In this document: positions 6,531 to 50,257 of the stretch, in pieces | Layout: every line of letters begins with the position of its first letter | Numbering within the stretch: the first letter of the stretch is position 1 | Assembly (NCBI GenBank): GCA_050084515.1 | Contig: CM114271.1 | Location: 6,200,001-6,264,000 of the forward strand | From: Blasia pusilla | Lineage: Eukaryota | Direction of reading: 5' to 3' | DNA length: 64,000 nt | Translations under genes and position numbers: made by a program | The notes under the pieces: model-generated | Told to the model about the DNA's origin: nothing | Database searches by the model: none | Seen by the model: only the letters and a program-made list of their open reading frames with translations

Positions 6531-6573
<43 letters not shown>
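6531..6573. repeat. (TC)n microsatellite
   Basis: Run of about 21 TC units. Confidence 0.95.
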
Positions 6574-6576
<3 letters not shown>

Positions 6577-17879: not shown

Positions 17880-20190
17880 AGTAGGAGTAGTGGAGTGACA
17901 CGGAGTGGTGTGAGGTATCGAGGGGTTTTGAGTGAGGAACCACCCCGACTCCCATTCGTGGCCAGATCATCATCACTAGAGAGCGGGTCTAGTGTAGAGA
18001 TCCCAGATGGGGACAGTGATGCGTGGAGAGAGGTGGACGACATGGGCCATCGGGGCATGCGTCATTTCTCGGGTGCGGTTGATACCATAGATTTAGATGA
18101 CTTCATCTAGGAGTTCGACACGTGATGGGACTTCTAGGAGATACGGACCCCTACGCAGTTCAACCCTTTCATGGCATGGAAGGGTTGTTCCAGCACTTGG
18201 AGGATCCTGAATGGATGATTACATGGAGTTTTGATCTCTATACTCTGTAGAGATCGATGCCTGGAGGGTGTATTGGGCTCAAGGGTATATATCCACTAGT
18301 GGCTGCGAGGCGTATGATGGGATAGTGAGGGCGGAGAGACCTACACCATCAACCCTGGGACTAGGTGGAGAGGATGGCAGTGAGAGTGGTGAGGTGGCAG
18401 AGACCTCTCGTGGTAGAGGACCACCGAGTTTCAATCCTACAGTGGAGTTCTTCCAACAGTTGGGGAGGAGCTACTATGGCGTGCGGACCCACAAGCTAAA
18501 TAGTCTACAGGATTTTCACTGGAGATCGGGTGAGAGTCTTAGGGAGGCGTTCACGTGCATGCGACGGTTGATCGTTGCCACATATGGGGTGATTGAGGCG
18601 CAGTTAGTGCAATATTGGTACGGGGTGCTGGATGAGGAGCTACGGAGGAGAGTTCAAGATGCGATGTTGCTTCACAAGGCAAAGCCCACAATGAAGGTGG
18701 TCTTGGAGTTGTTTGAGCGAGTAGAGCTCAACATGAGTGATTAGGAGCCACCTAGGATGGCCTCACTAGAGTTGCAGTGTGATCATTGTCATCGATATCA
18801 TCACACTAGGGATAGGTGTTTTGATCTTCGTCGAGCGATACGTCTAGAGGTAGGCAAAGGGCCTGGGGGCGAGAGAGTTGGTGGAGATCGAGGGGTTGAT
18901 GATCGTAGTGGTAGAGTTCCATCACCAGTCAAGGGAGATGGAGGACGTGCACCCAATGCAACGTTCCTCACTCGCATCGATCAGTTGGAGTAGAGGATTG
19001 CTACCATGACAATGATGCAACCAGTGATAGGCACGGAGCCGAGAGTAGCTAGTGTGGCTCCAGCCTCCACGTCGTATGAGGATACGCGGGAGGACTATAC
19101 GGGGTTGAGGTTTATGTATAGTGCGGCTTAGGTTGAGGCTGCTGCGGCGGTGACTCGAGGTGCTGCGAGAGTAACCGAGCCATCGAGAGGTGGGGTTGAG
19201 ATTGATCCATAGGAGGGGATCGATGGGTGGCAGGCCAAGGTTCCCCAGTTGTTCACATTGTCAGAGGCACTACATACAGCGTCAACGGATGGTGCCTTGT
19301 GGACCGATAGTACCTATGGGTGAGACAGGTGCGTCCACGTCACGAGGATTTGGAGAGACAACTCCTATGCCGGTTTAGGAGGAGCCAGTGTCGACCATGT
19401 TGTTGGAGGTGGCTATTAGGGTGAGCCAGACTCTGTTGTTTTCCGCCATGGAGTTGGCGACATTGGGAGTTGGACTAGCGGAGGTGTTCCGGCTGGCCGC
19501 CACGTTGTGTGAGTGTGGAGAGGTGACTACCTATTTTTCAGAGGTAGTTGAGGAGGTGGTGGACTTGCCCTCGAAGTAGGTGCTTGGGACGTTCCCCATT
19601 GAGTCATGGCATGCGGCAGTGGCAAAGTTGGTAGATATGCCAACTAGGCGAGCGATAGAGCAAGCTATGATCACACCAAGTGTGATGTTGTTGGAAAAAC
19701 AAGCATGAGTGTTACGCTTGGTTAGTCCCACAGGTATGATGTACCATACACAACACATCCTACTTGATTCGGGACCGCAACCCTTGATGTTAGGGAAGGC
19801 AACGTGTTTAGCGTTGGGTTTACGGAAAGGCGACATCGAGCCTTATTCCTTTTAGATATAGACCTCTATTGGGGGCGTATCACCCACACAATACATGACT
19901 CGGCAGGATTTAGTGATTAGACTTCATCCATAGCATGAGTCGGATAGTGCGATGGTGCGCACTCGGGCGATTACGACATCGCAGAGTCGTATGATGTGTT
20001 GGTAGGGAGTACGGTGTTGTATCCTCTTGGTTTCATTCTGGACTTTTGGGAGGAGACCGTTTCTTATTGGCCAGGGTGGCGATTAGGTGATGGACGGGTG
20101 AGCCATCTACCGGTGCAGTTTCCAGGAGTTAGTGGTGATCGATCGCGTGAGGATACGGTGATCACGTTGGCAACATTCACAAGTGGTGTC
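17880..20190 (+). pseudogene. Degenerate gag-protease of the outer element; truncated just after the protease (no MTase, RT or integrase)
   Basis: TIDLDDFI; SYYGVRTHKLNSLQDFHWRSGESLREAFTCMRRLI (retrotransposon gag-like); CDHCHRYHHTRDRC knuckle; LLDSGPQPLMLG protease motif at ~19760; YDVLVGSTVLYPLGFILDFWEE. Many in-frame stops. Confidence 0.82.
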
Positions 20191-22799
20191 GCTATTGTGT
20201 GGTGTGTAGATATGACCAGAGATGTGGGTTGTGTAGCAATGTATATGCGTACAAAAACTGTCACATCTTACTTCAACATAGGTAGAGTTCTATCGCGTCG
20301 ACGACATAGAGAGTTAGCGGGCTGTTGGGTGTAACTTTGTCCCAAGATGTCGGATGAGGTTGGAAACAGGTTTGTTGTATCGGGAATGTCGTTTATGATG
20401 AATTTCCTATTTTGGTTTTAGTTTGTCAGGTGACGCGTTGACCGGGTCAATGGTCACCTCGTAACCTATGCACGCAGGTTACCGTTGGTAGGGCTATTTT
20501 TGGGGGAAGAGATTTTTGGCTCTTCCCAAGGGTATAAGGGAGAGAGAGATGGCTTTCTCAAGCCATCTTTATCATGTTGAGCCTTAGGAGTGACTCACTT
20601 AGATAGACGTGTGTGGGTGTATAGGAGTTAGGTTGTTAACATCCACATTCTTTCATAGTAGAGGGTGGATGTGGTTTGTCACGTCTTTTAGGATAGATCG
20701 GTGGGATCTAATAGAGCGCCTTCATGAGTAGTGGAGGACACGCCCAGTAGGTCGAGGGTGACCTGCTGAGGCCCTTGGAAACCTGAGATAGCAGGTTTCC
20801 CCTTCGTTTCGGCTCATTTGGAGCCATATTGAGGAACTTACTATTTTAGGTAAGTACCATTTTGAGTATATTATCGACTTACTATTTTTGGTAAGTGGCC
20901 CTTGACCTCCTACATCAGGTCAAGGAGGTGACTTGGGAGAATAGGTTACCATGGAGAGAGCTTGGGAGAGGAGAGGGGTATACCTCAAGGAGAGAGAGCT
21001 TGAGAGCTCATTCTCTCTTTGTTGAACCTCTTGGCATGAGGCGGCGGAGCTATGGTACCTTGCCTTGTGAGTGTAACCCAAGCCTCTCATTAGGAGAGTG
21101 GGTTTGGTTTGACATGAGAGAGAGTGCACACCTTTGAGAGCTATGGTGTGAGATGGTGGAGAGAGAGATTGGATCTTACTTTACAAAGAGAGAATGAGAG
21201 AGTGAGAGAGCTTCATGGGGGAGCTCGCTGGTCACTCCCTGTTTTTGCAGGTTGGGGACCGTGTTCCCCGTTCAGCGGCTCATGGGAGTGCTCACCGGAG
21301 CAAGGGGTGCTTTCATTACTCTTTGCATTTGCCGATTTTTCGTGTGGAAGAGTGGCGCGCGGAAGCGCTGCCCAATTTCTGATAGGGATTGAGTATGGGG
21401 GCGGTTGCCCCATGCTGGTGCTCTCGGGAACACCATGTAGCTTGCTGATATGTATTTTTACAGATGTTACATTTTCGTTGGGAGAAATCAGCGCAGGAGC
21501 GCTGCCGAATTTTGTGTAGGAGAAAGAGACATTGGGCTTTACGACAGTCCCCGTCATTTTTTACTGAAATGTTTGATTCTAAATATTTTTTGATGGTAGT
21601 GTAGATCGTGAAGCTGTGCACGCTGTGCAACAAACAGTGCACAAGTTGGAGTTGCGAGCAAAAAGTTATGGGCAATCTTGTAAAGCTGCCATTGCTAGGC
21701 GATTTTTAGGGTTAAATCGTGCAAACCCTAAATCAACCGCCACACCGGCGGCGGCCGTCGCCATCATAGTCACCGTCAACGGTCGACGGTCAACCGTCAC
21801 CGTCATCGGTCGGCCGTCACCATCAGCGGTCAACCGTCACTGTCAAGGGTCCACCGTCCATTGTCCACCCTTTGGGTGCCATTGTCGCCATTACGGAGTG
21901 GAGGGTCTTCCATGACGTTCGTTGATTCCTTGACTTGCGTCGCCACCACGTACTTTGTTTTGGCCGCCACCGTCATCGCAGTTTCTTCATCAACCAATGA
22001 AGGCAGATGACCTCCGGTTATGGTGTTTGAGTTTTGATTTCATGCTGCTATGTTGTGATTGGTAGCCGCTCGACGACGATCGAGTATCGTGTCGTGGCGC
22101 CAGAGCCGCAACGCCGCCCGATTGCCGCGCCCGTGTCGCTCGGGCCGCACCGCACCATCTCTATCGCGGAGCCGCACCGTCATTGTGGAGCGAGTGTGGG
22201 ATTATTATTGATTGAGGAGGGTATGCCGCCGAAAGTGCCGCATCCCACCATCGAGGGCCGCGGCCGTTTGTAGCCGTTCGCGTCGCGCCGCAACGCCGCA
22301 CCGTTCGGCGGGACCGCGCAGGTGTCTATCGAGGAGTTTTGAGCAGCATCATGACGGGAGGAGTATGACTTGCTGATTGGAGGAGTTGTCTCCACGATCG
22401 AGTTGGGGTCGAGATTTGCGATTCTTGAGGAGCGACATCGACATGTGTTCGGGTTACCCATTCTCGGTCCTTTACCCGCACGTGTGAGGGATTCTGGGAT
22501 TTATTTGGGGATATTGGGTGTGTGGATGCTGAGAGCATCATTTATATATGTGGTTTAGGGGACATAGACCTGTGTGGGATGTCCGGAGTTGAGGGTAGGT
22601 TGTCGATGAGATGATAGCCTGGTCGATTTGCCGCACCACGCCGCGTGTTGCAACACGTTACACGTCTCGGGGAGAGAGAGTGTAGATCGAGTGCCGCATG
22701 TTTGGGATGAGTGATTGAGGGATTCCTCACGAGGTTCAGAGTGATCGGGTGAGAGGGGCACGAGGGTCATCACGGAGTCTGTTCAGGACTTTGAGAGCC

Positions 22800-24750
22800 G
22801 AGGTGGTGAACCTAAGAGTAGCTCTAGAGGTTTTACGCGGAGTGGCGCGAGGTTTCGAGGGTCTCCACGTGAGGGACCACCTCAACCTCCTTCTGTGTCA
22901 TCGTCAGACGAGGGGGAGGGTGTAGAGGAGTTTGTGAGCACATCGCCACACATTGTGAGTGGTCCTACCGGTTGGGCGTCACGAGATGGACGATCGGGGT
23001 AGAGGACGCGAGGTTTTCAGGTGTGAGGCACGATTGAGTTGCACGCGATTTTATAGCAGAGTTTAGGAGTTGGTGCGACTCCCGTGGGCCAGAACTCTAG
23101 AGAGTTCAACCGTTCTTACAAAGATGGAACGGTATGTTCCAAAGATTTAGAGGGGGCGCCCATGGACGATTACCATGAGTTCTCTCGAGAGATATGCATG
23201 TGAGATCGAGGCGTGGAGGCTCTACTATGACCCACATTATGTGTCATGGACGGAGCGTTCCCAGATGAGGAGGAGGAGTCGAGAGGCTACTTCCTCTTCC
23301 ACTAGTGACGTTTTAGGAGGGGTCACTCGACGGGAGCGATTGCACCGTCTAGTCGGGTTCATCCCTGAGTTGAGTTCTTTTGAGTTGAGGGCGAGCTACC
23401 AAGGGGTACGGACGGAGAAGTTGCGGAGCATCCACGACTTCCAGAGGCGCCGGGTGAGAGTTTGCGTGAGGCTTACACTCGCTTGCGCCGGTTGATCAAC
23501 GTCACTCGGGGGGTGACAGAGGCTCAGCTATCCGGTCATGGTATGCGATCTTTGGCCGACCGACCCTGCGGACACGGAGTGCGGAGGGGGTGCTTCTTAT
23601 GAACACCTCCCCACGTTGAGATGTTTTTAGGACCGCCGAGAATATTGAGCGCAACATGGCGGAGGAGAGCGTAGCCACCATGGGTTCTGGGCGAGAGCAG
23701 TCACGATTGTCTGCACCACTTGTGTAGCAACGTGGACTCCGAGATAGGTCGACTATGGCACCACGAGCTCGGGGGGAGGATACCGAGAGGCCGTGCCACG
23801 AGACTGCGCCTTCATATGCGGCTCAAGGCAGCAGCCGCCTACTATTACTTGTTGGTCATGTGGTGGAGCCCATCATCAGCGCGATTGCACTCGCGGGGTC
23901 ATGGACGTGTGCCTCAAAGATGGAGGAGGAGATGGTGTCGCACCAGGAGGTTATCGGTGTGACTACCGCCGAGGTATGGTCATACACGCGCCAGGTGTTT
24001 TAGTTTACATCCTGAGTTACGCCTGGACCGAGGGCCGAGAGGGCACCAGAGCGAGTAGCCGGTCCGGTGGGCCTAGAGATCGTGCTCCAGGTGGTCCCGT
24101 TGGGGGACGAGGAGCTGGAGTTGCCCGACAGGGTGGTGGAGCGCCGTGGAGGAGGTAGAGTACCACCACCTAGACGCGCCGAGGGAGATGTCGGACGTGA
24201 GGCCGGGATGGTCGCTTTCGATACAACATGACTACATGAGCATATTGCCGCTATGGCATTGAGGTTACCCGATGCCGGATCTGTGGCATCGACATCATAT
24301 GGAAGCGTCGAGAGATCCGGAGGATCCTGGATGGATGCGAGGTTGCCAGATGGAGGCCGCCGCAGACAGACGCGTGGAGCAGCCGCAGAGTTGATCCACA
24401 GCGAGGGGAAGCCAGAGATGCAGACTAGGCTTCCTCAATCTTTCACGTTGTCGGCGATGAGGACCCCATCGATGGGTCCTCATCAAAGTTCCCAAGAGTT
24501 GGTAATGTTGTTGGTGTGCAAGCACGGAGGGTGATGGGAGAAGCGAAGTGCGACGACTCCTATTGTTGATGCTCGGAGAGGGCATGTGTCAAGCACGTTG
24601 TTGGGGCGGCCACCGTTGTGTACCGCACTCCTTTATTTTCGCTTCCGATGTTGTGACGTTGGGAGGTACGCCCGCCGAGGTTTTTTTTCGGCTGGCCGCT
24701 TCACTATGTGAGCGTGGAGTTGGAGTTCCTGCATCACATTCGTGAGGTGA
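22800..24750 (+). pseudogene. gag region of the inner element (frameshifted as assembled)
   Basis: LRASYQGVRTEKLRSIHDFQR (homologous to the outer gag); CCHC zinc knuckle CWSCGGAHHQRDC at ~23850-23890. Boundaries approximate. Confidence 0.75.
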
Positions 24751-24784
24751 TTGCAGAGGAGGTGATGGACCTGCCCTTGAGCGG

Positions 24785-25340
24785 ATGCTCGGGCCGCCCA
24801 CGCCGATTCATGGCAGTGCGGTCGCTAGGATGGCGGAGATGCCCGCTAGACCCGCGATAGAGCGTGCCATGGCTTCTCCTGGTGTTGTGTTGCTGGATAA
24901 CCGAGGAGAGGTCTTCCAGTTGGTGAGTCTTGGAGGTAGAGCTTTTAGTCCGCAGCGCGTCTTGTTGGATTCAGGAGCGCAACCCTTGATGTTGGGGAAA
25001 GCGTCATTCAGAGGATTGGGCTTGACGAGAGCCGATGTGGAGTGTTGTCCATTTCGGATACAGACATCCTTGGGTGGAGCGAGTACCACACAGTATATCA
25101 CCCGACAGGAGGTCGTGGTGAGGATTCGCCCGGGACATCCTACAGATGAGTCCGTGGTGCGCGCCAAGGCGATAGTGACTGATGCTGAGTCCTACGACGT
25201 CTTGGTTGGTGGAGCAGTGTTATACCCGATGGGGTTTTCCCTGGATTACTGGGAGGAGTCAGCGTCCTACAGACCAGGATGGCAGTCAGGTGATGGGCGC
25301 CTTAGCTCATTACCCGTTCGATTCACAGGTGCAGTGATCG
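24785..25340 (+). pseudogene. Retrotransposon aspartic protease domain
   Basis: RVLLDSGAQPLMLG active-site motif (~24960) and distal SYDVLVGGAVL motif. Confidence 0.88.
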
Positions 25341-25674
25341 AGCAATGGCGATGGCAACCTTAGCAGCATTTAGCAGTGCCATCACTTGGCCTAGTGATTT
25401 GATTGAGGGACATGTCCATGCAGAGGATACTCCCGTTCCTGACATTTCTATGGAGAGGAGTGTTATGGTAGCTGCATCATTCCGTGGAGGAGAGGTGCCG
25501 CTGTGGGGCTCGACTGAGGAGCTTCAACGATTGGCAGATGCGCACGTGCAGACCGCGTGGAGCGAGGCGTTTGCACCAGAGCGTGACGGGTCTGAGGAAC
25601 CCGAGGTAGCGGGGAGTGCTACGATGACACCCTTGGATACTACACCCATTGTGTGGTGTACCCCGGAGGAGGGT

Positions 25675-26600
25675 ATTCGAGTGTTAGATCTCTTTGGAGG
25701 GATTAGCACCGGGTTAGCTCTTGCTTTGGCAGGAGTGCGAGTACAACAAAGATTTGTATGTGGAGAGTGATGATGTTGCGAGGCGCGTCTCACTACGACA
25801 TGTGGCGCAATTACGCCTACGTTTTCCCGACTTATTGTCTGCGTCCGCATTACAGGGGATACCAGAGTTCCCTACCGAGGGATATTTTGTTGTTGGGGGC
25901 GCAGGACTTAGAGCGGGTAGGGACCATTGATTTGGTCATTGCCGGTTGGCCATGTCGGCCAATCGAGAGCCGGACGAGGCAGCTGGTTGGTCGACACTCG
26001 GTCCAGGTTTTTTGGGAGATGTTGAGGGTCTTACGGCGAGTTGCAGAGCACCGCCTCATTCTCCGGCCTACATTCGAGAATGTGCCGATCTTAGAGACTC
26101 AGTGTCACGGGTCGTGATGAATGCTCATCAGGTGCGTGCCTGGATCGGCCCAGAAGTGTTCTTGGATGCGGCGAGTGTAGGTTCTAGAGCCCATCGCCCG
26201 CGTCTATGGTGGACCAACTTGGTGCCCCATGCGGTGTTATGGAGGGCGTATGCAAGAGTGGAGCGCCCCTCCCTTTGTTAGTGGATTCCATTCTGGATCC
26301 AGTCGCCGATCACACGCAGTGAGGCACGATGATCGACCACCGCCGACCGGGTCAGGGGTAGGCAGGCCGCGGCGCCTTGCCCACGTTTGTGAGTTTTCCC
26401 GCTTCCTATGCATACAAGGAGGCCGGTCTTGGCTTGGTTTGGGATGACCAGGTTCAGCGGTTGGTGGAGCCCAACGCCGACGAGAGAGAGCGAGCAATGG
26501 GATTTCCCACAGGAGTGACGGTAGTACCATCAATGTCAGAGGCATCACGACGCCATGTCTTGGGTCAAGCGATGGACCTGAACTGCTTGACATGGATCTC
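25675..26600 (+). pseudogene. DNMT3-like C5 cytosine DNA methyltransferase domain embedded in pol (split over several frames)
   Basis: Motif I IRVLDLFGGISTGL (25675); II YVESDDVA; III PRDI; IV IDLVIAGWPC (PC at 25950-25955) then GQSRAG...DTRS; VI ENV (26076-26084); VIII LDAASVGSRAHRPRLWWTNL (26162-26221); IX EPNADERERAMGFPTGVT (26467-26520); X RRHVLGQAMDL. All are in canonical I-to-X order. Confidence 0.9.
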
Positions 26601-26939
26601 GCCTTGGGAGTGCTCGAGCGGCGTCGTATGAGATCGTGATAGATCACGGCCGGTTGCGCAGTGAGCCCCATGCCTACCGAGACGGTGGAGGCAGTGGCTG
26701 GGGGCGAGACCCGAGGAGATCTACGCACCAGGGAAGATCGGGAGAGACACACTTGGACTTCTTGGGATGTTTTGAAGGTACGCAAGGAGATGATAGCCAC
26801 AGCATCGAGTGTGGTTTCGGCAATCGCACGTGGAGGAGATCAGAGTTTGCGCTGGCTGCAGGAGAGCGGCCGAGTGTTGTTGTTCGAGACGGGTTGCACC
26901 ATAGCAACCACCGATACCCGCCACGGAGAGTCCTACCGT

Positions 26940-28370
26940 AGTCACGATGGAGACTTGGGAGCCGATATGGGCCCTAAGTTGACAGGAGGAGAGTGGCGCC
27001 GAATACATCAGTTCCTTAGGAGTTATAGGAGCCGCTGCGTTTAGCATGGAGGATTTGGGTACGTTGAAGGGACCGGGATCCGCATTGAGTTGTCGAGTGA
27101 TATGCCGATCTTCTTCCGCGACCCTACAGTGTCTGATGATATGGAGAGGGATCTGATTGAGTAGGAGCCAAGACTTGGTGAGCAGACTAGTGGAGATGTC
27201 GCATGGGGAGTATGCATCCGCCACTTTGTCATGCCCGCCAAGAAGGATGTGCATGGCAACCGGACGGATAGGCGGATGTGTGGGGATTACCGACCTATCA
27301 ATCGGCGCATTTAAGTCCGATAGGTATGCCATGCCCACCCTTGAGGAGATCTTTGATGCGATTGGTCACGCAAAGGTCTTGATTCATTGATTTTGAAAGT
27401 GGATACCATCACCGCCTATCGATTGAGGACAAAAAAGACGGCATTTTGGGGCATTGATCCTCACGGGAAGGATTGTTTGTACCAGTGGCGGTTCTTACCA
27501 TTTGGGTTAAAGAACACCCGGCTGAGTTTCAAAGGGTCATGGATAGGATCTTGGCTGGTTTGGATTATTCTAGGTGTTATATTGATGACATCGTAGTCTT
27601 TAGCGCCACCACGGTTGAGGAGCATGAGCAACATCTAGAGGAGGTGTTTCGACGATTGCAATTACATGGGTGAAGCTACATCCGGCAAGTGCAAGTTCTT
27701 CTACGACCAGATTGAGTACTTGGGTCATACGATATACCCAGGGGGCCTTGGTGTTCAAAGACGAAGGTAGAGGCTATCTCATGCATTCCACGCCCCTGAG
27801 ATGTGAGCCGTGTTCGCAAGATTCATGGGATTGGCAAACTTCTATCGGCGATCGTCAAGGGATTCGGGATTCGATTATGGCCGCTGACCTTGCTCACCAA
27901 GGTGGATCACGAGTGGCACGGGGATGAGCAGAGCGAGCATTTCGATTGCTCAAGAACAGGTTGACGCCCGCACCCATCTTGAGGAGACCGATCAGGGGCG
28001 CCCTTTCCGATTGCACACGATTGGAGCATGTTGGGGCTTGGAGCAAGTGCTCACCCAAAGATGATGATGAGGTTTGTGGTGGCTTACGCTAGCCGCTCGA
28101 ACAACGCTGCAGGCGAAATCTGATTCAGTATGAGGGTGAGTGCTTGGTCATGCGTGTGGGTCATCGCGCATTTTAGGTGTTACTTATTCGGCAACCCTTT
28201 ACCATCATCATCGATCATCAACCACTGAAGTGGTTGATGGAGTCCGACAAGCTTACAAGGAAGCTTGCGAGATGGGCTCTGTTGTTGCAGGAGTATGATT
28301 TTCAGGTGGTACATAGACGTGGAACGCTCAACCAGGATGCAGATGGGTTGAGTCGTAACCCATGCCCGAA
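26940..28370 (+). pseudogene. Reverse transcriptase and RNase H of the inner Gypsy element (frameshifted as assembled)
   Basis: RMCGDYRPIN, DRYAMPTLEEIFDAIG, KTAFWG, YQWRFLPFGLKN, PAEFQRVMDRILAGL, CYIDDIVVFS; RNase H VVAYASRS, DHQPLKWL, LARWALLLQEYDFQVVHRRGTLNQDADGLSR. Confidence 0.93.
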
Positions 28371-28539
28371 GTCGAGATGCGACTGGAGCTCGATGGCATG
28401 GAGAGAGTGATGAGGAATTGGTGCCAGGATGGCACGCGTCAGCCTATTTAGGCATGTTGGCTATGGAGAGCTAGAGTGTGGAGACTTCGATGGCGAGGTC
28501 TAGTGGAGAGTCTTTGGATCCCGAGGCCAGTGAGGACAC

Positions 28540-29800
28540 GACAAGTGGCCGAGATATTCATGATGATGGAGTAGTCTTAGAGTACCTTCGTACTGGCAGC
28601 CTTGCGAGCACCATGGATGCTAGAGAGCGGGATCGGATCCTACAGCGGGCCAGACGGTTCCGTTGGGAGGGGACACATGTTTTGAGGGTTTGGGAGGATG
28701 GCAGAGTACGCGTAGTGCCGCATCCTTTGCAGAGAGCACGACTAGTGCAGCATGCCCATGAGGAGTTGGGTCACTTTGGGGTGAAGCGGACGTATAGCTT
28801 GCTCCAGATTCAGTATTGGTGGCGAGGCATGCATGCAGACCGGCGTTCGGCAGCTTTGTTGCCAGTGCATGGTGTGTGATCGGGTCCGAGCATCGTTCAA
28901 TGCTCCGACTCACGCTTGCATCCATTACCAATCATGGGCTTAGGGTATAGATGGAGTTTGATTTTGCAGACCTTTGCCCTTGACGGAGCATCACGATCGT
29001 TATGTGTTGGTGATGGTGAGCACTTCTCGAAGTGGATCGAGTTGGTTGCATTGCCTGACAAAGCAAGTGAGGGAGTAGCTTATGCCTTCCTTGAGAGAGT
29101 GCAGAGTCATTATGGCACACCAGTTGAGGTGTTGACAGACCAGGGTACCGAAGTTTAGCGGTGAGTTCCAAGCCTTGTGTGATCGGGGCCGATCGACCAC
29201 CGCGACGACCAGCGAGATCATCCCGAGGCGGATGGATTAGCGGAGAGAGTTGTGCAGACGGTGAAGAGGGGTTTACGCAAGTATGGCTTGCGAGAGAGGT
29301 CACCTAGAGATTGGGACCTCCGATTTGCCATGGTTGGCGATGGGATACTGATTCGTGACGAGGCATCCTTAGCGTCTTTTTCACCATACTTGCTACTTTA
29401 TGGCGAGAGCCGATTTACCTGCGGCCATTCGCCGAGATCTTTGGTGAGGTGTCTGAACCTTGATGACCCAGATGTATGGGTGCGAGGATGTTCTCGTGAG
29501 GGTGAGTTATTTCGGAGAGTGATGCCCATGGCGTTCGAGAACTTGGCGATTGCACAAAGATTGGGATACGTTGAGGTATGCGACTATTCCAGGTGGTGGT
29601 TATCGACCAACAATCCGAAGGTTTCATCAGGGAGATTATGTCTATTTGCAGCAGACGGCACCGACGACGTTGGATGTGACTGCAGGGCGCACTATCCTGA
29701 GAGTGCGTGACATTTTGCCATCGGGTGTTTCTCTTCGGAGGGACGCGATGGTATGGTATGGAAGGACCATGTGCATAATTGTGCGCCATGTCACCTTCCT
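28540..29800 (+). pseudogene. Integrase (HHCC zinc finger plus DDE core) of the inner element
   Basis: HAHEELGHFGVKRTYSLL...YWWRGM...CxxC; LHPLPIMGLGYRWSL; EHFSKWIELVAL; VLTDQGTE; ADGLAERVVQTVKRGLRKY. Confidence 0.92.
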
Positions 29801-29854
29801 AACATTGATGGTACAAAGAGATCCGAGCTTAGTAGTAGTTCCTGCAGCTTGCAT

Positions 29855-29993
29855 TGTATGTTGTGTGGTTACGCCGTAGTGCGCCACAATGCTAGTCTGT
29901 GATGGGTGTTCGAGAGGATGGCATATGGCATGTTTGACGCCACCTCTCACTAGGGTTCCTCAAGGACGATGGATGTGTCCCATATGTACATAG
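29855..29993 (+). pseudogene. PHD finger (C4HC3) at the C terminus of the pol polyprotein
   Basis: CMLCG...(one frameshift)...[36 protein letters not shown], stop at 29991-29993. Confidence 0.9.
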
Positions 29994-31237
29994 AGAAGAT
30001 AGTTCTACATTCCGACTTGTGTCTATGACATGGATGACAAGGAGGCGACTAACGATGGGGCCACATGAGCACTCGGCCTTCTTGCTCTTAGCGTCCGAGA
30101 GATGTATGTCATGGTAGGTAGGGATAGATGGCTATCTGGAGTTAGAGGGACCTAATCACCAGCTAGGGGGGCGATTGGAGATATTTTGGTTCTTCTTGTC
30201 TCGTTGTTTGGATGCCATGAGTTAGCATGGGATCATGCGTGTTTCTGTGTGTGTTCGGTGACAGCGATGTATGTTGTGTAGCGATGTGTATGCGTCGGCG
30301 GTTGTCACGCGTCTTTTAGGATAGATCGGTGGGATCTAATAGAGCGCCTTCATGAGTAGTGGAGGACACGCCCGAGAGAGGTCGAGGGTGACTGCTGAGG
30401 CCCTTGGAAACCCGAGATAGCAGGTTTCCCAAGCGTTCGGCTCATTTGGAGCCATATTGAGGAACTTACTATTTTAGGTAAGTACCATTTTGAGTATATT
30501 ATCGACTTACTATTTTTGGTAAGTGGCCCTTGACCTCCTACATCAGGTCAAGGAGGTGACTTGGGAGAATAGGTTACCATGGAGAGAGCTTGGGAGAGGA
30601 GAGGGGTATACCTCAAGGAGAGAGAGCTTGAGAGCTCATTCTCTCTTTGTTGAACCTCTTGGCATGAGGCGGCGGAGCTATGGTACCTTGCCTTGTGAGT
30701 GTAACCCAAGCCTCTCATTAGGAGAGTGGGTTTGGTTTGACATGAGAGAGAGTGCACACCTTTGAGAGCTATGGTGTGAGATGGTGGAGAGAGAGATTGG
30801 ATCTTACTTTATTGGAGATATTTTGGTTCTTCTTGTCTCGTTGTTTGGATGCCATGAGTTAGCATGGGATCATGCGTGTTTGTGTGTGTGTGTTTGGTGA
30901 CAGCGATGTATGTTGTGTAGCGATGTGTATGCGCACGACAGGTTCGATATGCTGATGTAGATTCATGAGTGGATTTTTAGGTCGGGTGAGCCATTTTTAC
31001 TACTCTTGATTTTTTTGTTGGGTCTCGATGTATATATGTGAGTTTGTTTGGTTTGTGTGGATCTACCCGTATTTTGGGGAAGATCGATGTTGTGTGGTGT
31101 GTAGATGTGACCAACGATGTGGGTTGTGTAGCGATGTGTATGGGCACGACAGATCTCATAAGATTTTTTCTTATAATAGTTAATTTCAAATAAGAGATGG
31201 GAGGAAACATATAGTTGAATTTTCAAAGGGGAAGGGA

Positions 31238-34856: not shown

Positions 34857-35353
34857 TGCAGTTAACCTCCGTCCATAATCTGCGCAATTTCTCTCTAGAG
34901 ATGCATCCAGTTTCTTTCCCTCGGATTGGCTTTCCTCCATTGTGGTCAATGCTTTCGGGGGAACTTCACAATTCCGTAGGAGTAGATTTCGCGGATTTTT
35001 CCTGTCAATCGGCATTCGGCAGTGGCATGTTTACCGCTGTGTCTCGAGAGCGTCGATGGGACTGTATGACACTTCCGGATTGGTAGGAGTTAATGCTTGG
35101 GATCGTTTCTTACCGCAACTGCGAAGAATAGGACCGTAAAATACCACACGTCCACGACTTTTTCTGATCTGATTCTCATGGCTGGAGTAGCCGATTAGGC
35201 ATTCTGTACCGGTCTATCATGTGCTTGCTTGTTCTGATTTCGTTTGGTCTACGGTTGCGCTTTGGATAAGTTTTCGCTTCTTAACTGGCTGCATGTTATT
35301 TCCGCAGGTATGAATGTCATCAAGATCGAAGATGAACACTCTCAGACGTGAAG

Positions 35354-37474
35354 ATGAGGAATAGGTTGCTTCACACCCGGACTCTTTCGAGAGTGGTGGA
35401 AGCTCAAAGAAGGCTTATTGAAATTCGGGACAGCGAGGGGTGGATCGGCTGTTTAAGAGCTGGCAACTCCACTGGGAAATCTTTGTGTCGCACTTGGCTT
35501 GGTTCTCACAGCGTCGATCAATTCTCGAGCAACGTCGACCGGTGCAGAGTGGTGGGTTTAGGGCTTAGGGCATTTCGCAGGACGTTTTCATGGATGGTCG
35601 CTGCGCCAGATCTCACAAGGGGTTGTTTACTGGGGGATGAATATTGGAATAAACCTTTCGGAAGTGAGATATATGACAGGAAAGAGTCGAACAGGAAGGG
35701 ATCGCATTGGAGGAAGGAAGATCCGGGGTACCAAGAGGCTAAGAGTATCGGTAGTGTGTGCAATGTGCTACAGAGATGGCAGTGGACGAAAGAAACAGAG
35801 ATAGCCCTTACGAAGTTGAGTATCAAGCTCACCCCATACTTGGTCTACGAGGTATTGAAACGCCAACGTGATCCAGACATGGCATTCAAGTTTTTTGAAT
35901 GGTCCAAGCGGCAACCAGGATACAAGCATGAGACGGCAGTGTATACCCGGATGGTGATGATTGCAGGGGCATCCAAGAAGTATGAGGCTGTGAAGGGCTT
36001 GGTGGCTGAGATGGAAACCGAGGGTTGTGAGAGAAATCTCGCCTTTTACAATGCTCTGGTTGATTTTTTTTCCCAGGCTAGGATGTTGGATGAAGCCCTT
36101 CAAGCCCTTGAAACTATTAAATCATGTGGCTGGTCGCCCACATTCTTCACATACAAGTGTCTTGTTCATTCAGCTTTGAAGTCGGGGAATGTTAGAAAGG
36201 GTGCTGAAATGTACATGGAGATGATGCAAGCCGGGTTTATGCCTGACAACACCACCGTGAACATGTTAATTGACGCATTTGCCAAGACAGGCCAAATGAA
36301 GACAGCCTGCAATATCTTTCGGGAAATGGTGGATAGGGGTTGTGTACCAGACGTTTACACATACACCATTGTGATCCGGAGTCTTGGTCAAAAGGGACAC
36401 ATGAATGCAGCCATGAAAGTCTTCAGGGACATGATAGAAGCAGGCTGTAGACCTACTTCGTACACATACCACAGTTTGATCCATGCCTTTGGCAGGGAGG
36501 GGAAAGTGAACGAGGCAGTACAGCTAATCAATGAAATGGTCAACAAGGGCTATCAACCAGGTATTATAACCTATAATATACTCATTGATGCGTATGCGAA
36601 GGCAGGTGATTGGGATGGAGCAATGGAACTTTTTGAACGAGCTAAGGGGATGGCTGATGCTGTCACTTACAATAGCATGCTGGATAGGGCTGTTAAGAAA
36701 GGAGATGTTCATGCTGCCTCCCAACTTTTCGAGCAGATGGGTGCCACAGGGTGCATTGCCAACAAAGTTACGTATGCAATTTTGATCCGGGGCCTTACCA
36801 AAGCTGGCAAGGTGGAGGAAGCATGTAAGCTGTATGAAGAGATGAAGCGCCTGAATCTGAAGCCAGATGCCACCATCTTCAACAACATGATTGATTGCCT
36901 TGGGAAGATGCGGCTCATTGATGATACTCTGAAGCTTTTTAAAGAAATGAAGGATCATGGTGTACGTCCTGATATGTGTACATACAATACATTGATTAAT
37001 CGTCTATGTAAAGCAGGTCAAATAGACATGGCATCAAAAATTGCAGAGGAAATGGCAGAAGCTGGTTGTATACCAGGTCGAGTTACGTACAATTGCCTAA
37101 TCAACAGTTTGGGGAAAGGAAGGAAAATTGATGCAGCTTGCAAACTGTTTCTAGAAATGCAGCAAAAGGGTGCCAAACCTGATGTAGTTACATACACCAG
37201 CCTCATTGATGGTTTTTTCATTGCAGAGAAAATTGACTCAGCCCTATATATGTTCCAAGAAATGAAAAAGGTAGGCTGTCGCCCAAACGTCGTAACTTAT
37301 AATCTCCTCATAGATCACCTCATCAGGCAAGGTCGAATTGCTGCGGCTTTGAACTTCTGGCAAGAGATGAAAGAGAAGGGCCTTACTCCTGATGAGATCA
37401 CAGAGACCATCTTAGGTCGGATTCCACTGGAATGCAGAGGTGGGCAGACAACAAATCAAGAGGGCAAGAAATGA
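35354..37474 (+). CDS. P-class pentatricopeptide repeat protein (~706 aa), single coding exon
   Basis: Long ORF with tandem 35-aa PPR motifs (PDVYTYTIVIRSLGQKG, PDMCTYNTLINRLCKAG, PNVVTYNLLIDHLIRQG), an N-terminal AFKFFEWSKRQPGYKH motif and no E/DYW domain. First ATG at 35354; a likely 5'UTR intron acceptor at ~35308. Confidence 0.95.
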   Translation: MRNRLLHTRTLSRVVEAQRRLIEIRDSEGWIGCLRAGNSTGKSLCRTWLGSHSVDQFSSNVDRCRVVGLGLRAFRRTFSWMVAAPDLTRGCLLGDEYWNKPFGSEIYDRKESNRKGSHWRKEDPGYQEAKSIGSVCNVLQRWQWTKETEIALTKLSIKLTPYLVYEVLKRQRDPDMAFKFFEWSKRQPGYKHETAVYTRMVMIAGASKKYEAVKGLVAEMETEGCERNLAFYNALVDFFSQARMLDEALQALETIKSCGWSPTFFTYKCLVHSALKSGNVRKGAEMYMEMMQAGFMPDNTTVNMLIDAFAKTGQMKTACNIFREMVDRGCVPDVYTYTIVIRSLGQKGHMNAAMKVFRDMIEAGCRPTSYTYHSLIHAFGREGKVNEAVQLINEMVNKGYQPGIITYNILIDAYAKAGDWDGAMELFERAKGMADAVTYNSMLDRAVKKGDVHAASQLFEQMGATGCIANKVTYAILIRGLTKAGKVEEACKLYEEMKRLNLKPDATIFNNMIDCLGKMRLIDDTLKLFKEMKDHGVRPDMCTYNTLINRLCKAGQIDMASKIAEEMAEAGCIPGRVTYNCLINSLGKGRKIDAACKLFLEMQQKGAKPDVVTYTSLIDGFFIAEKIDSALYMFQEMKKVGCRPNVVTYNLLIDHLIRQGRIAAALNFWQEMKEKGLTPDEITETILGRIPLECRGGQTTNQEGKK

Positions 37475-39830: not shown

Positions 39831-40570
39831 CTGCTCGGGTTTTTGTTGTTCTTCCTAGCTATATCTCATGTTTTGATGGAGTTCTTTCCGAATCTAGAGG
39901 CATGAAGAGAATGACAATGGCATGAACTAACCTTCGTGACATCAGGAAAGGAATTGTTGTCTTTGAGTCCCACGCTTTGCACATCCGATTATGGGTTCTC
40001 CCATCTTCTTTTACCCATGTTTGTCTTCTTTGTCTCCTCCAATCACCTTATTTTCCTACAGCAGGATTCAAGGGAAGCAGAATGGTCTTGAATGGGCAGA
40101 AATCCATTCCCACAAACTTTGCTGATATGGGGACTCAAATCTGCCCTTCGCAGGAACCTTTGAGAAATTTTTACTTACAAAGAATCATTAGATGCAAAGA
40201 TACGGCAAGTATTGCACAATACTTGCCGTATCTTGACTCTATCCAAGAGTATCAAATGAATTTGACTCTATCCAAGAGAGTGAGCCCATGGGAACAAGTT
40301 TGCTAGATAAAGCAGTATGGAACAACCTATCACATCAAACACTAAAAAGAAACATCATAGGGAGTAGGCCCATGGGTGTGGGCATTGGAACATACCTTAG
40401 CGAATATATCCTCCCCACACTTTTCCTTTGGCCTACTTTGCCCATCTCGTTGAGTCTAGGGGTCGATTTCTTCTAGAGTCTCCCGGAGTGCCTAGGTTTT
40501 CCACCTTACTCCCTTTGTGAACCAGTTTATGGGACCCCATTTGGATGGAGGACGTGAACACGATCTCTCT

Positions 40571-41085
40571 GGGGATGAGTTTGTGGGGTCCCCTTGGGTG
40601 AAGGTAGAAAACACAAAGACACCACCATATCCTCTCTCTCTCTCCCTCTCGGGATGAGTTTGTGGGGTGCCCTTGGGTGAAGGTAGAAAACACAAAGACA
40701 CCACCATATCCTCTCTCTCTCTCTCCCTCTCGGGATGAGTTTGTGGGGTGCCCTTGGGTGAAGGTAGAAAACACAAAGACACCTCCATATCCTCTCTCTC
40801 GGGATGAGTTTGTGGGGTCCCCTTGGGTGAAGGAAAAACAAACAAAGACACCACCATACACCATATCCTCCCTCTCTCTCTCTCTCTCTCTTGGGATGAG
40901 TTTGTGGGGTGCCCTTGGGTGAAGGTAGAAAACACAAAGACACCACCATATCCTCTCTCCCTCTCTTGAGAGAGGGAGAGAGGATATGGGACCCTAAACC
41001 CATGAGCCCTGGTTGGGTTCGGTTTTGGAGGTGCCCTTGGGTGGAGATAAGAAACACAAAGACACGAGCATAACCTCTCTCACTC
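40571..41085. repeat. Minisatellite: five ~70-90 bp units plus one diverged unit, each ending in a variable (CT)n tract
   Basis: gggatgagtttgtggggt(g/c)cccttgggtgaaggtagaaaacacaaagacaccaccatatc(ct)n starts at ~40572, 40651, 40722, 40801 and 40893. Confidence 0.92.
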
Positions 41086-42825
41086 TCATGCAGGACGACC
41101 CCATGGGATGATGCGACTACAACAAGTTCACTCTCACTTTTTCCGTGTGGTCTATTTTTATCGGACTGAGTGTCCTTTTGGTCCTTCGTGGACGGGCTTT
41201 ATCCGAACCCTTTTCGTGCCGTTTTCGTCATCTCATGCTGTCGAAACTGCTTCGTGAGCGGAGGCTTGGGCTCCTATTTGTGGTGTAGTCGTCTCCCTTC
41301 CCTTCTATCTCTTCATGTCGCCTCTTTCATTCGTCCTTCTTGTCCCCTCAAAAGCTCTTGGCCCTCTTTTACTCGTTCTATGCTCCTTCTATGGTATTGG
41401 ATCCTCGTGGGTGGGCCACTTCCTCTTCGATTACTTCGTGGGCGGATTTCTTTAGCCCTTTTTTTGGTTTTCTTTTTCTGGGCTTTTTCCTTTTCTTTAT
41501 TTTAGGTGGGGGAAGTTACCTATTAATCCTTGTGGGTGGGTGGGTGGATCGAAGTCATTCTAATTTGATTCATTTTCCCCTTTTCAGCTGTTTGCCTTGA
41601 ATGGACCGGCAAACATGCCGTCTTCTTTCGCATGTGAAACCAATGTGCGGCTCTTTGAGAGGGGTGGGGGAAGAGAGTAATTAAGAAATACGTGTGGAGG
41701 ACACATGGATAGCCTAGATAATGAGAAAATAAAGGACGATTAGGATTAGGGGCCGTAATTGAGTTAAGCCTATGCTAAAAATGCAAAAACCCTGTCTGTT
41801 TAAATTGCCACACCTTGGCAACTTTGATGTGCTTGCGTGGCATCTCTCCATGTATTTAGAATCACAAATAAAAATGCCCCTCAAAGTGCACCCACTCATA
41901 TATGCCTATATGGAATAAACTTTGATTTGATTGCTTTAAATTAGGATTAGTAAGGCATTAGCACACACATTGATATGATTGGGTCTCATTGTGTAAGGTT
42001 TTCTTCCATTTCAAAACTCTTTTCTTCTTCTGATAATTGATCCTCAATCTACCAATAAGGTTGGCACTAAACTAATGGACACTCGTCGGAGTTGAATTAA
42101 AACTGAAATTATTCATTTTTATATTTGGATCATTTAATGAAATACACTGAAATGAAAATTTAAAATTTAAAATTTAAAAATGAGGATCAGTAAAAAATTG
42201 TTTTGCCCATTTTTCCATTTGAGCACGGAAAAAAGTGTTGTTATTTCCATGTGTCATACAATTAAGATATTGAAAAGTACTAATCAATCTTCTAATTATA
42301 ATGTATATGTTTGCAAAACCAAATAAAAGATCTTGGCTTGTGATCCAGGAGTTCCATATTTTCTTCTTACATGGAAAATTTTAAACTCCAAAATAAATCA
42401 GGGCTACATTAATGGCTTGATAAAACTCTTCATGACAAGACAATTGAGTGTGGTAAATTCATTGTATATTACTTCCTCCTCACTAGAGACACACTCAATA
42501 ATTGGGAGAAGTCACAACTAGAACATCCCCCCCACCTTCTTTTTCTTATAGTTGATAATCTTTGCGACACCACAATAGGTGAGGAAAACGTATAGTGAAT
42601 ATACTCCCAATTTTGCAATCAATCATGTGTGTGTGTGTTAGTTGAAAATTGGCATAGTTGTTTCTAATGTATGTGTAGATAATATTTTGTGTGATATTAC
42701 CCGAAATTATTTTTTATTCTTGAAATCATTCTCTGAAAACTAATTAAAACTTGGTTAAAATCCATTTATTTATATAGATGTAAACACCAACTTCTAATAT
42801 TCTAGAAAAGAGCTTTTATCTTACA

Positions 42826-49066: not shown

Positions 49067-50257
49067 ATGGGGGACAATTTCAAGGACAAGTTCTCCGCTC
49101 TGAGCGAGAAATTGAAGGTGGGAGGGTCGGATTTGTCCCGGAAGGTGTCGGAAAGAATGAACAGCATGAGCGGCAAGATGAAGGAGCTGTTCCTGGTGCC
49201 CACCGCCGCGGACAAGCTCGTCGAGGAGGCGACGGCGGAGAATTTGGAAGCGCCGGACTGGAGCAAGAACCTAGACCTCTGCGACCAGGTCAATCACGAG
49301 AGGATGAGCGGAGCGGATGCCGTCCGGGGCATCAAGAAGCGCATCATGGTCAAGAGTCCCGCGGTTCAGATCCTCGCCCTCACTCTCCTGGAAACTTGCG
49401 TCAAAAATTGCGACAAGATGTTCTCCGAGGTCGCCTCCGAGAAGGTCCTGGACGAGATGGTGAAGCTCATCGACGATCGCCAGTCGTCCATCGAGAGCCG
49501 GGAGAAGGCCCTCAAGCTGATCGAAGCCTGGGGCGAATCCACCGAGGAGCTTCGCTACTTGCCGGTGTTCGAAGAGACGTACAAGAGTTTGAGGAGTAGG
49601 GGCGTACAGTTTCCCGGCCGTGACAACGAAAGCTTGGCGCCGATTTTCACTCCTCCTCAGACCACAGCGTCGGCTGCGCGCGCTCATGGACTCGGCGACT
49701 CCTCTCCGTTTTGGAGCCCCGAGTTCGCGGCGACGCCCTTGTCGGACCCCGCCGATCCTGCGAATGTCAAGGAGACGTTCGACGTCGCCCGAAACAGCAC
49801 GGAGCTTCTCTCCACCGTCCTCAGTTCGTCTCCCCACCAAGAGGCGCTCAAAGACGAGATTACGACCACTCTGGTAGAGCAGTGTCGGCAATCGCAGTTC
49901 AATTTGCAGAGGATAATTCAGCGAGCGGAAGACAACGAGCCCAATCTATTCGAAGCGCTGAATTTGAACGACGAGTTACAAAAGGTTTTGGACAAGTACG
50001 AGGAGTCGTCCGCCCCCGGAGCCACCACTCCTGTGGCCACCATTCATGCCACTCAGACCGACAGGTTGGTTGCGCCTGCCTTCACTAGTGTTCCGGCGCA
50101 CGAAGAAGAGGATCTGCTCACAGGGGGTGGGGAAGATGCACTGGTCAGAAATTACGGACAGAGGATGCAGCACACCCCACTTTCCGCCCAAGGAGACGAC
50201 AAAGCAATGGCGGTTTTAGATGAAATGATCTTCGGCACCAAGGGAGGAACCTCATGA
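49067..50257 (+). CDS. TOL1: TOM1-like (TOL) VHS-GAT protein, TOL1/TOL2 type, 396 aa, no introns in CDS
   Basis: MGDNFKDKFSALSEKLKVGG N terminus; VHS domain (ATAENLEAPDWSKNLDLCD, LALTLLETCVKNC, LIEAWGESTEELRYLPVFEETYKSL, FPGRDNESLAPIFTPP); GAT domain (LVEQCRQSQ...LFEALNLNDELQKVLDKYEE). Closely resembles Arabidopsis TOL1 as remembered. Confidence 0.93.
   Translation: MGDNFKDKFSALSEKLKVGGSDLSRKVSERMNSMSGKMKELFLVPTAADKLVEEATAENLEAPDWSKNLDLCDQVNHERMSGADAVRGIKKRIMVKSPAVQILALTLLETCVKNCDKMFSEVASEKVLDEMVKLIDDRQSSIESREKALKLIEAWGESTEELRYLPVFEETYKSLRSRGVQFPGRDNESLAPIFTPPQTTASAARAHGLGDSSPFWSPEFAATPLSDPADPANVKETFDVARNSTELLSTVLSSSPHQEALKDEITTTLVEQCRQSQFNLQRIIQRAEDNEPNLFEALNLNDELQKVLDKYEESSAPGATTPVATIHATQTDRLVAPAFTSVPAHEEEDLLTGGGEDALVRNYGQRMQHTPLSAQGDDKAMAVLDEMIFGTKGGTS

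Follow-up and report, generated by a model that had tools for sequence, protein, structure and literature searches.

A PHD finger on the integrase of a green-lineage gypsy clade that also encodes a DNMT3-like methyltransferase

What does a PHD finger do at the end of the pol gene of a retrotransposon that also carries a DNA methyltransferase? This combination is found in a 64,000-nt stretch of the Blasia pusilla genome (contig CM114271.1 of assembly GCA_050084515.1, positions 6,200,001 to 6,264,000, forward strand; hereafter the window, with coordinates counted from its first letter). A first-pass annotation of its sequence had noted a C4HC3 PHD finger ending pol at the place where chromoviruses carry a chromodomain, and had suggested that this chromatin reader, paired with a DNA methylation writer, might steer integration to particular chromatin or couple targeting with methylation.

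The window copy and its PHD finger

The PHD belongs to an element at 20676–30933, a Ty3/gypsy-type LTR retrotransposon of the Gypsy-DNMT3 kind. The family is present in many copies, and this one is dead. Its features are listed below; L and P numbers denote related loci and proteins, respectively.

20676..21183, plus strand: repeat A1, the 5′ terminal repeat (97.9% identical to 30302–30811 over 512 columns)
24797..25330, plus strand: aspartic protease region, with LLDSGAQ at 24962–24982 and the end motif at 25193–25213 (tblastn with L001 ORF1)
25351..26600, plus strand: DNMT3-like cytosine methyltransferase, split over three frames (tblastn with P0172, P0177 and L001 ORF1)
26952..27850, plus strand: reverse transcriptase, frameshifted, with YIDD at 27575–27601 (RVT_1 E 4.9e-7 on 27458–27670; tblastn with L001 ORF2, P0002 and P0175)
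27931..28407, plus strand: RNase H (RT_RNaseH E 1.3e-9 on 28177–28407; tblastn)
28475..29555, plus strand: integrase zinc-binding (H2C2) domain and DDE core, mostly in frame mod 2 (Integrase_H2C2 E 9.2e-11, rve E 8.9e-5)
29560..29815, plus strand: integrase C-terminal SH3-like domain, with GDYVYLQQ at 29631–29654 and NCAPCHLP at 29777–29800 (alignment to 13 relatives)
29850..29990, plus strand: PHD finger, C4HC3 (Pfam PF00628 E 6.7e-10; eight ligands invariant in 14 aligned sequences)
29850, 29859, 29898, 29907, 29922, 29931, 29976, 29985, plus strand: starts of the PHD ligand codons
29877..29879, plus strand: in-frame TAG within the PHD, private to the window copy or its subfamily (reads of other copies differ)
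29991..29993, plus strand: pol stop codon TAG, one residue past the last Cys of the PHD
30174..30294, plus strand: repeat B1 (96.7% identical to 30811–30933)
30302..30811, plus strand: repeat A2, which pairs with A1
30811..30933, plus strand: repeat B2, the element end, which pairs with B1 (A-coding-B-A-B layout)

The domain order is PR-DNMT3-like-RT-RH-IN-PHD, with RT-RNaseH-integrase in gypsy order. Residues 652–1140 of L001 ORF1, from a fully open metagenome relative described below, cover window positions 24797–26272 by tblastn. A third copy of repeat B was looked for beside A1 and none was found.

In a Pfam scan of 93 stop-to-stop plus-strand pieces between 20603 and 30278, the 37-residue piece 29880–29990 matched PF00628 by itself with 39.3 bits (E 6.7e-10). 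The check that the first-pass annotation had proposed thus exceeded the gathering score of 24 for the window piece as well as for intact relatives, which score 32–50 bits. Given this match and the gypsy-order domains recovered in the same scan, we regard the PHD at 29850–29990 as genuine and not as a chance pattern. All eight zinc ligands are there in frame mod 0, with the spacing C-x2-C-x12-C-x2-C-x4-H-x2-C-x14-C-x2-C, and they show no variation in the alignment of 14 sequences. The codon of the first Cys, 29850–29852, lies 5 nt upstream of the start assigned in the first-pass annotation (29855), and the TAG at 29877–29879 falls among the 12 residues between the first and second ligand pairs.

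Read in a single frame (mod 0), 29523–29990 covers the last part of a gypsy integrase C-terminal domain and, ~17 residues further on, the PHD. Twelve of the 13 closest relatives likewise terminate pol 0–10 residues past the last PHD Cys, and Pfam scans of the window pieces and of 38 relatives gave no match to the Chromo family. The two observations from which the question arose, that a C4HC3 PHD finger ends pol and that it stands where chromoviruses have their chromodomain, were therefore correct.

From the integrase core, which is in mod 2, the reading frame of the window copy shifts to mod 0 near 29559, to mod 2 again near 29730 and once more to mod 0 near 29816, so that the PHD (mod 0) is out of frame with the core; the conserved NCAPCHLP at 29777–29800 is read in frame mod 2. 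The RT, the RNase H and the upstream region are also broken many times. The window copy is a pseudogene that can make neither the ORF1 nor the ORF2 protein, and therefore nothing functional is expected from the window itself. The change near 29730 is not among the indel rows listed from read mapping. A 5-base duplication near 29750, considered as a cause of frameshifting, was ruled out since the alignment shows a one-base frame change near 29730. We also rejected NCAPCH as an extra zinc knuckle before the PHD, since 6 of 13 relatives have Val in place of its first Cys; the segment resembles the final strand of the integrase C-terminal domain.

The window copy is surrounded by ordinary genes, namely a PPR gene at 35336–37471 (4.4 kb downstream), as would suit a plant host, a TFIIIC-like gene and a VHS-GAT gene, a setting that says nothing for targeting to silent chromatin.

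Relatives, selection and host transcripts

As reference for our checks, intact relatives and reads from other copies took the place of a family consensus. An exhaustive HMMER search of cluster representatives with 29523–29990, in which the TAG was read as X, returned 4710 representatives at E ≤ 1e-3 and 444 at E ≤ 1e-10. Of the 150 best matches, 122 align in one stretch that runs from the integrase C-terminal domain into the PHD. Another 23 align over the finger alone, most of them in several stretches as multi-PHD proteins, and the remaining 5 are integrase-only or split. We used this stretch count, as a regular-expression count of fusions (93/150) is an undercount owing to a too strict integrase motif pattern. 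All 28 scanned matches of at least 1000 aa carry Integrase_H2C2 with a PHD downstream (Pfam); these are 28 of 32 matches of that length, the other 4 being PHD-only with several stretches.

A word-based search starting from the best match yielded 15 proteins. One of them, P0172 (1516 aa), is a single DNMT-RT-RNaseH-integrase-PHD ORF with the domain order of the window. The nearest named protein, P0177, is Mp_7g09570 of Marchantia polymorpha, with up to 76% identity to the window; this gene model joins the DNMT part of such an element to its integrase-PHD part. Other named hosts are Coleochaete scutata (a complete transcript ORF), Haematococcus lacustris and Monoraphidium neglectum. In 93 more distant relatives the tail after the PHD has a median length of 167 aa and only 8 end within 15 aa, while P0150 carries a PTM/DIR17-type Tudor domain after the PHD (E 6e-8). 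Because the PHD is non-terminal in most distant relatives and is followed by a Tudor-like domain in P0150, it may act as part of a larger reader cassette.

Scanning metagenomes with P0172 by itself gave no relative, and a scan with alignment A2 found 131, of which 80 loci were retrieved. In only 6 of these 80 loci does an ORF of at least 300 aa run through the C-terminal domain of the integrase to the end of the PHD, indicating that most copies are decayed; all six ORFs end 2–13 residues past the PHD. L001 is fully open. Its ORF1 (976–5082) contains the protease and a DNA_methylase match (E 1.8e-13), and its ORF2 (5086–8226, 1047 aa), in the same frame as ORF1, encodes RT-RNaseH-integrase-PHD and ends 13 aa after the PHD. 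Asp_protease_2 matches ORF1 of both L001 and L002 (Pfam). In L001, L002 and L052 the two ORFs are split by a single in-frame TAG. The contexts seen are TAG-CAG-TTA, TAG-CAA-TCA and TAG-GGG-TGC; the first two fit the leaky-stop context CAR-YYA.

An integrase and a PHD in one frame, as the first-pass annotation had supposed, are hence encoded by intact relatives as single ORFs (P0172, L001 ORF2). The window copy, with its three frame changes and the TAG, has lost this continuity.

The dN/dS ratio over the 45 codons of the PHD is 0.044 for L001/L002 (19 synonymous and 7 nonsynonymous differences; whole ORF2 0.059), 0.052 for L001/L003 (whole ORF2 0.059) and 0.124 for L002/L003 (4 synonymous and 2 nonsynonymous differences; whole ORF2 0.078); pairs with L015 are saturated and give no value. 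The PHD is under purifying selection with a dN/dS of about 0.05, like the rest of pol. In a large clade of green-lineage gypsy elements, from green algae to liverworts, it forms a C-terminal integrase module that is conserved and selected.

To follow the family in the host, DNA contig sets X1 and X5 and RNA-seq runs X22 and X23, which bear the same species label, were mapped on 27000–30300 at a likeness of at least 85%. With 124,554 (X1) and 9,519 (X5) DNA contig pieces the family is very abundant, and it is represented by 3469 (X22) and 3786 (X23) RNA reads. RNA depth is 30–306 with the first mate on the minus strand versus 0–19 with the first mate on the plus strand, which, given usual stranded libraries, indicates sense transcripts. 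Only 12 of the 3469 (X22) and 25 of the 3786 (X23) reads are at least 99% like the window copy.

Position 29878, the A of the TAG within the finger, is G in 102/102 and 5/5 RNA reads of X22 and in 100/100 of X23, i.e., the other copies of the host have a sense codon at the window's TAG in every covering RNA read. In the DNA contigs, G accounts for 145.5 of a depth of 153.9 (X5) and 254.8 of 670.5 (X1). One base fewer is found at 29559 in 58/135 (X22) and 81/136 (X23) RNA reads, and at 29816 in 19/70 (X22) and 13/68 (X23). Since reads from other copies differ from the window at 29878, 29559 and 29816, the breaks between PHD and integrase are not general in the family.

The DNMT3-like methyltransferase

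Methyltransferase motifs I (25684–25713), IV (PCR, 25944–25961), VI (ENV, 26073–26087), VIII (26186–26212) and X (26563–26583) can be followed through the window copy. Its pieces have no Pfam match at E ≤ 0.01, so that the identity of this domain rests on the intact relatives. Their methyltransferase domain matches PF00145 (Pfam), and among solved structures the P0172 domain is closest to DNMT3B, 3A and 3C (E about 1e-6). Motifs I (FxGxG), IV (PCQ), VI (ENV), VIII (RxR) and X (GN) are intact in L001 and L002. The pairing of the reader with a methylation writer is borne out to the extent that the same element encodes a DNMT3-like enzyme whose catalytic motifs are intact in relatives.

A DNMT lies upstream of RT in 27 metagenome loci with IN-PHD (tblastn) and in L043, L071 and L073 (profile search). 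In seven degenerate IN-PHD loci with at least 2.8 kb upstream of RT no DNMT was found, and for this reason the pairing of PHD and DNMT may not be obligatory. Nineteen long relatives have a 600–700-residue insert between RNaseH and integrase, which in 18 of them is homologous over its full length to the P0172 DNMT, with E values of 1e-29 to 1e-40 for 17 relatives and 1e-9 for one, and PF00628 is found on 110 of 120 listed relatives of this RH-DNMT-IN type. The clade nearly always encodes a DNMT3-like enzyme besides the PHD.

There are two DNMT positions, PR-DNMT-RT in the window's lineage versus RH-DNMT-IN-PHD in a chlorophyte sister lineage. Judged by the homology of the RNaseH-integrase insert to the P0172 DNMT, the PHD stays on the integrase and homologous DNMTs sit in two different places. 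This bears on the proposed coupling of reader and writer, of which the part that stands is their presence in one element. Direct coupling in cis, as in the ADD-methyltransferase of DNMT3, appears unlikely in the window's lineage because the DNMT belongs to the upstream gag-PR-DNMT ORF, and the TAG, RT and RNase H lie between it and IN-PHD. Such coupling is more conceivable in the RH-DNMT-IN-PHD arrangement of the chlorophyte sister lineage.

Predicted histone preference and known systems

A phmmer search of all solved chains with the Marchantia PHD gave 77 sequences at E ≤ 1e-3. The best 60 of these 77 are headed by CHD4 PHD1/2, PHF12, DPF2/3, ATXR5, KMT2C/D and KDM5A/B PHD1, and further top matches among them are PHF21A (BHC80), KAT6A/B, BAZ2A/B, UHRF1 and AIRE. 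We also modeled the last 175 residues of L001 ORF2 with AlphaFold (AF2; 51-sequence alignment, mean pLDDT 84.4). The model consists of a helix, a five-strand barrel (residues 46–96) and the PHD; its PHD blocks, with a pLDDT of 88–97, are predicted to adopt the interleaved two-zinc fold in L001, the element used for this test in place of the window copy. Foldseek places the whole model close to the Tudor-PHD cassettes of PHF1/MTF2 and UHRF1, and the modeled PHD superposes at 0.7–1.5 Å on DPF3b, ATXR5, MOZ, BAZ2A/B, BHC80 and UHRF1. Titles of solved entries among the fold matches include "in complex with unmodified H3K4 histone peptide" (BAZ2A) and "unmodified H3 N-terminal tail", and one fold match is an H3K4me1 complex; ligands of solved PHDs were assigned in part from such entry titles.

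H3K4me3 readers of the ING, BPTF or TAF3 type are absent from the best 60 of the 77 sequence matches and from the listed fold matches. The aromatic cage of H3K4me3 readers is formed by the positions two before the His ligand and just before the first Cys. Of 93 relatives, 78 have Gly at the former and 66 have Ala or Pro at the latter, so that such a cage is lacking. A conserved acidic residue after the second Cys would be expected of an H3K4me0 reader; this residue is D/E in 9 of 13 close relatives and S/R in 4 of 13, a variability that counts against that class. Based on its resemblance to solved PHDs, the predicted specificity of the finger groups it with readers of the unmodified H3 tail and not with H3K4me3 readers. 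The general statement of the first-pass annotation that PHD fingers commonly read the H3K4 state is narrowed accordingly: the likeness is to H3K4me0 readers and does not extend to the H3K4me3 type. Because the PHD groups with unmodified-tail readers, chromatin-guided integration is plausible by analogy.

Our best explanation as a whole, towards which we lean, is that the window holds a dead copy of the Gypsy-DNMT3 kind in whose family the PHD tethers the integrase to H3 unmethylated at K4 and the DNMT acts as a separate protein. By resemblance, the PHD would bind the N-terminal tail of histone H3 with K4 unmethylated and, by analogy with the chromoviral chromodomain, would tether the integrase-cDNA complex to nucleosomes. 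Such tethering would steer new insertions away from active promoters marked by H3K4me3. The methyltransferase would be made from the upstream ORF (gag-PR-DNMT), probably freed by the element's own protease, and would act as a protein of its own, and RT-RH-IN-PHD would probably be made through read-through of the single TAG. Encoded in separate ORFs, reader and writer would in the window's lineage share an element but not a mature protein.

The finger could instead serve the element's own DNMT as an ADD-like allosteric or targeting partner, reading H3K4me0 in order to license or direct methylation of the new insertion and taking no part in site choice. That the two domains occur together in almost all relatives (the 18/19 long relatives, the 110/120 listed relatives of RH-DNMT-IN type and the 27 metagenome loci) would suit such a partnership, as would the DNMT3-like nature of the enzyme, the match of the PHD class to H3K4me0 readers and the chlorophyte arrangement, where the DNMT is directly N-terminal to the integrase and a DNMT-IN-PHD protein is conceivable. 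However, the DNMT of the window's lineage follows the protease in ORF1 and precedes the TAG, and the PHD is ~1000 residues away at the end of ORF2; moreover, seven IN-PHD loci are without a detectable DNMT, and across both lineages it is the DNMT that changes place while the PHD keeps to the integrase. We consider this role unlikely. Even less probable in our view is that the PHD reads another mark (H3K4me3, H3K9me, or acyl-lysine with a neighbouring domain), a non-histone factor or nucleic acid, and thereby targets other chromatin or aids nuclear import or intasome assembly. PHD fingers are versatile: the close solved matches DPF3b and MOZ DPF read H3K14 acylation as tandem fingers, an H3K4me1 complex is among the solved fold matches of the L001 PHD, the second Cys is followed by a variable residue, and distant relatives have a Tudor-like domain after the PHD, with Tudor-PHD cassettes (PHF1/MTF2, UHRF1) as fold matches of the whole model. 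Yet the PHD here is single and not a tandem DPF, the two cage positions are Gly and Ala/Pro, and neither the best 60 sequence matches nor the listed fold matches include an H3K4me3 reader.

For the window locus taken by itself, the PHD is almost certainly a functionless relic from which nothing is made, considering the in-frame TAG in the finger, the at least three frame changes from integrase core to PHD, the further breaks upstream and the few RNA reads close to this copy. The family is another matter, since there the PHD is conserved and under selection. Returning to integrase tethering by the PHD as the preferred reading, we also see a wider possibility, which on balance we doubt. The gypsy clade of chlorophytes (Haematococcus, Monoraphidium), streptophyte algae (Coleochaete) and liverworts, always with an H3K4me0-type PHD, almost always with a DNMT3-like enzyme, and with the DNMT shuffled between PR-DNMT-RT and RH-DNMT-IN, might rebuild in trans the ADD-plus-methyltransferase logic of the host DNMT3, inserting into H3K4-unmethylated chromatin and methylating itself. 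If true, this would amount to a self-silencing or "stealth" strategy and could explain the very high copy number together with ongoing transcription.

Part of this picture is already known, namely DNMT-bearing gypsy elements of streptophytes and, in general terms, PHDs in transposons. KnitGypsy-Dnmt3 of Klebsormidium nitens is a gypsy element with a Dnmt3-related methyltransferase and the unusual A-coding-B-A-B repeats, the latter described in a legend to Fig. 4c (de Mendoza et al. 2018, PMC5890265, as far as covered here), and streptophyte elements are termed "streptophytes (Gypsy-DNMT3)" in the consulted part of bioRxiv 10.64898/2026.05.21.726589. As described there, KnitGypsy-Dnmt3 shares with our element the LTR gypsy type, a Dnmt3-related enzyme in the polyprotein, conserved catalytic residues (here in relatives), the repeat layout and a streptophyte host. 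The portions of the text and supplements of PMC5890265 covered here do not mention a PHD, which marks a difference from our element, as does the liverwort-like host, the nearest named protein here being from Marchantia polymorpha. In our element the DNMT is placed between protease and RT; the K. nitens element was compared by its description only. The terms "PHD", "KnitGypsy" and "PF00628" are absent from the supplements of PMC5890265, and its Fig. 4c may well show a PHD. In the literature searched, we found no description of an integrase-PHD fusion in a DNMT-bearing gypsy element.

According to the portions consulted of PMC6673714, PMC8557442 and bioRxiv 10.1101/2021.11.30.470311, PHDs occur in CR1 non-LTR elements, in REM1 and other Chlamydomonas elements, in Chlamys PLEs and, in PYGO-like form, in cnidarian retrotransposons, and a guiding role of transposon PHDs in integration has been put forward before in general terms (PMC6673714, bioRxiv 10.1101/2021.11.30.470311). 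Those PHDs are likewise accessory domains of mobile elements thought to read chromatin, but they reside in other proteins or at other positions, and the consulted portions do not describe an integrase-PHD together with a DNMT.

Among host proteins, the readers of unmodified H3 (PHF21A/BHC80, BAZ2A/B, ATXR5, KDM5A/B PHD1, AIRE PHD1, UHRF1 PHD, DPF3 PHD2) match our PHD with sequence E values of 1e-7 to 1e-15 and share with it the layout C-D-x-C-x-x-x-[WYF]-H-x-x-C-L-x-P-P-L...P-x-G-x-W-x-C-x-x-C; the modeled fold lies within an rmsd of 0.7–1.5 Å over 46–58 residues at 36–49% identity. In contrast to these readers, the PHD here has a longer loop (11–12 residues) from the first ligand pair to the second, and an acidic residue after the second Cys is not conserved. 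Animal DNMT3 resembles the element in joining an H3K4me0-type zinc-finger reader (here predicted) and a DNMT3-like catalytic domain in one genetic unit. It differs in that the two are here in different ORFs or polyprotein parts, with a plain PHD on the integrase in place of an ADD on the enzyme. The element shows how reader and writer modules have moved about in a single retrotransposon lineage of the green plants, and through it the purpose of transposon-encoded DNMTs could be addressed in concrete terms, as the family is abundant and transcribed, intact relatives exist, and the domain is small and easily expressed.

The closest functional parallel is with chromoviruses such as MAGGY and Tf1, Ty3/gypsy elements with a chromodomain at the C terminus of the integrase (Gao et al. 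2008, as cited in the portions consulted of PMC6673714 and bioRxiv 10.1101/2021.11.30.470311). In both cases a histone-tail reader, predicted for ours, directly follows the integrase C-terminal domain, and tethering to a chromatin state is proposed. The reader here is a zinc-binding PHD and not a chromodomain, with the unmodified H3 tail as predicted ligand versus H3K9me. If the PHD guides integration, the family would represent a second, independent answer to the task for which chromoviruses use a chromodomain, and one that comes together with a DNA methyltransferase of the element itself.

Boundary between the two open reading frames in intact relatives

In three intact relatives of the window element, the metagenome loci L001, L002, and L052, the boundary between gag-PR-DNMT and RT-RH-IN-PHD consists of one in-frame TAG:

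L001:5083-5085, in-frame TAG between the ORFs
L002:4661-4663, in-frame TAG between the ORFs
L052:848-850, in-frame TAG between the ORFs

The motif CAR-YYA characterizes leaky stop codons of plant viruses, and the contexts in two of the three relatives, TAG-CAG-TTA and TAG-CAA-TCA, match it. Together, the single in-frame TAG and these two CAR-YYA-like contexts suggest that pol of the intact relatives would be produced by stop-codon read-through, with the DNMT made in gag-like amounts.

Additional domains in relatives

Chlorophyte-type relatives, which have the order RH-DNMT-IN-PHD, carry 100-470 more residues C-terminal to the PHD finger. The tail of at least one of them includes a Tudor domain resembling that of PTM/DIR17, which makes up an IN-PHD-Tudor reader cassette together with the integrase and the PHD finger. 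Some relatives have a G-patch domain after the DNMT and before the integrase. The corresponding positions in the database proteins are:

P0150 1191-1239 and P0010 537-587, post-PHD extension/Tudor observation
P0059 1184-1223, G-patch domain between DNMT and integrase
P0106 328-364, G-patch domain between DNMT and integrase

Surroundings of the dead element

Host genes lie on both sides of the dead element, which thus sits in gene-bearing DNA. Immediately upstream of it, window 16013-20676 holds a fragment that is older and comes from a related element, bounded by a 420-bp repeat:

3-3355, minus strand, TFIIIC B-block subunit-like host gene
16013-16431 and 20259-20676, 420-bp repeat (copies 86% identical)
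18307-18642 and 19619-20121, gag-like and protease matches in the older fragment
35336-37471, plus strand, intronless PPR host gene (712 aa)
49028-50254, plus strand, VHS-GAT (TOL-like) host gene

The end of the 420-bp repeat coincides exactly with the start of repeat A1 (20676), and the arrangement of the older fragment and the window element may reflect nested or tandem insertion. A CT-repeat-rich tandem array at 40553-41088 (six copies of about 80-120-bp units) overlaps minus-strand ORFs with a weak SH3_retrovirus (copia-type) match. Parts of the stretch are also present in air metagenomes X6 and X10-X12 (word shares 0.14-0.26).

Terminal repeat layout

The repeats of the window element (20676-21183 and 30174-30933) are ordered A-coding-B-A-B, and no B copy adjoining its 5′ A was found. 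Reads from other family copies run from B through 'CACGACAAC' into the start of A. The window element joins a DDE integrase with these DIRS-like ends. The same DIRS-like A-coding-B-A-B layout has been described for KnitGypsy-Dnmt3, a Klebsormidium nitens gypsy element with a Dnmt3-related methyltransferase (PMC5890265).
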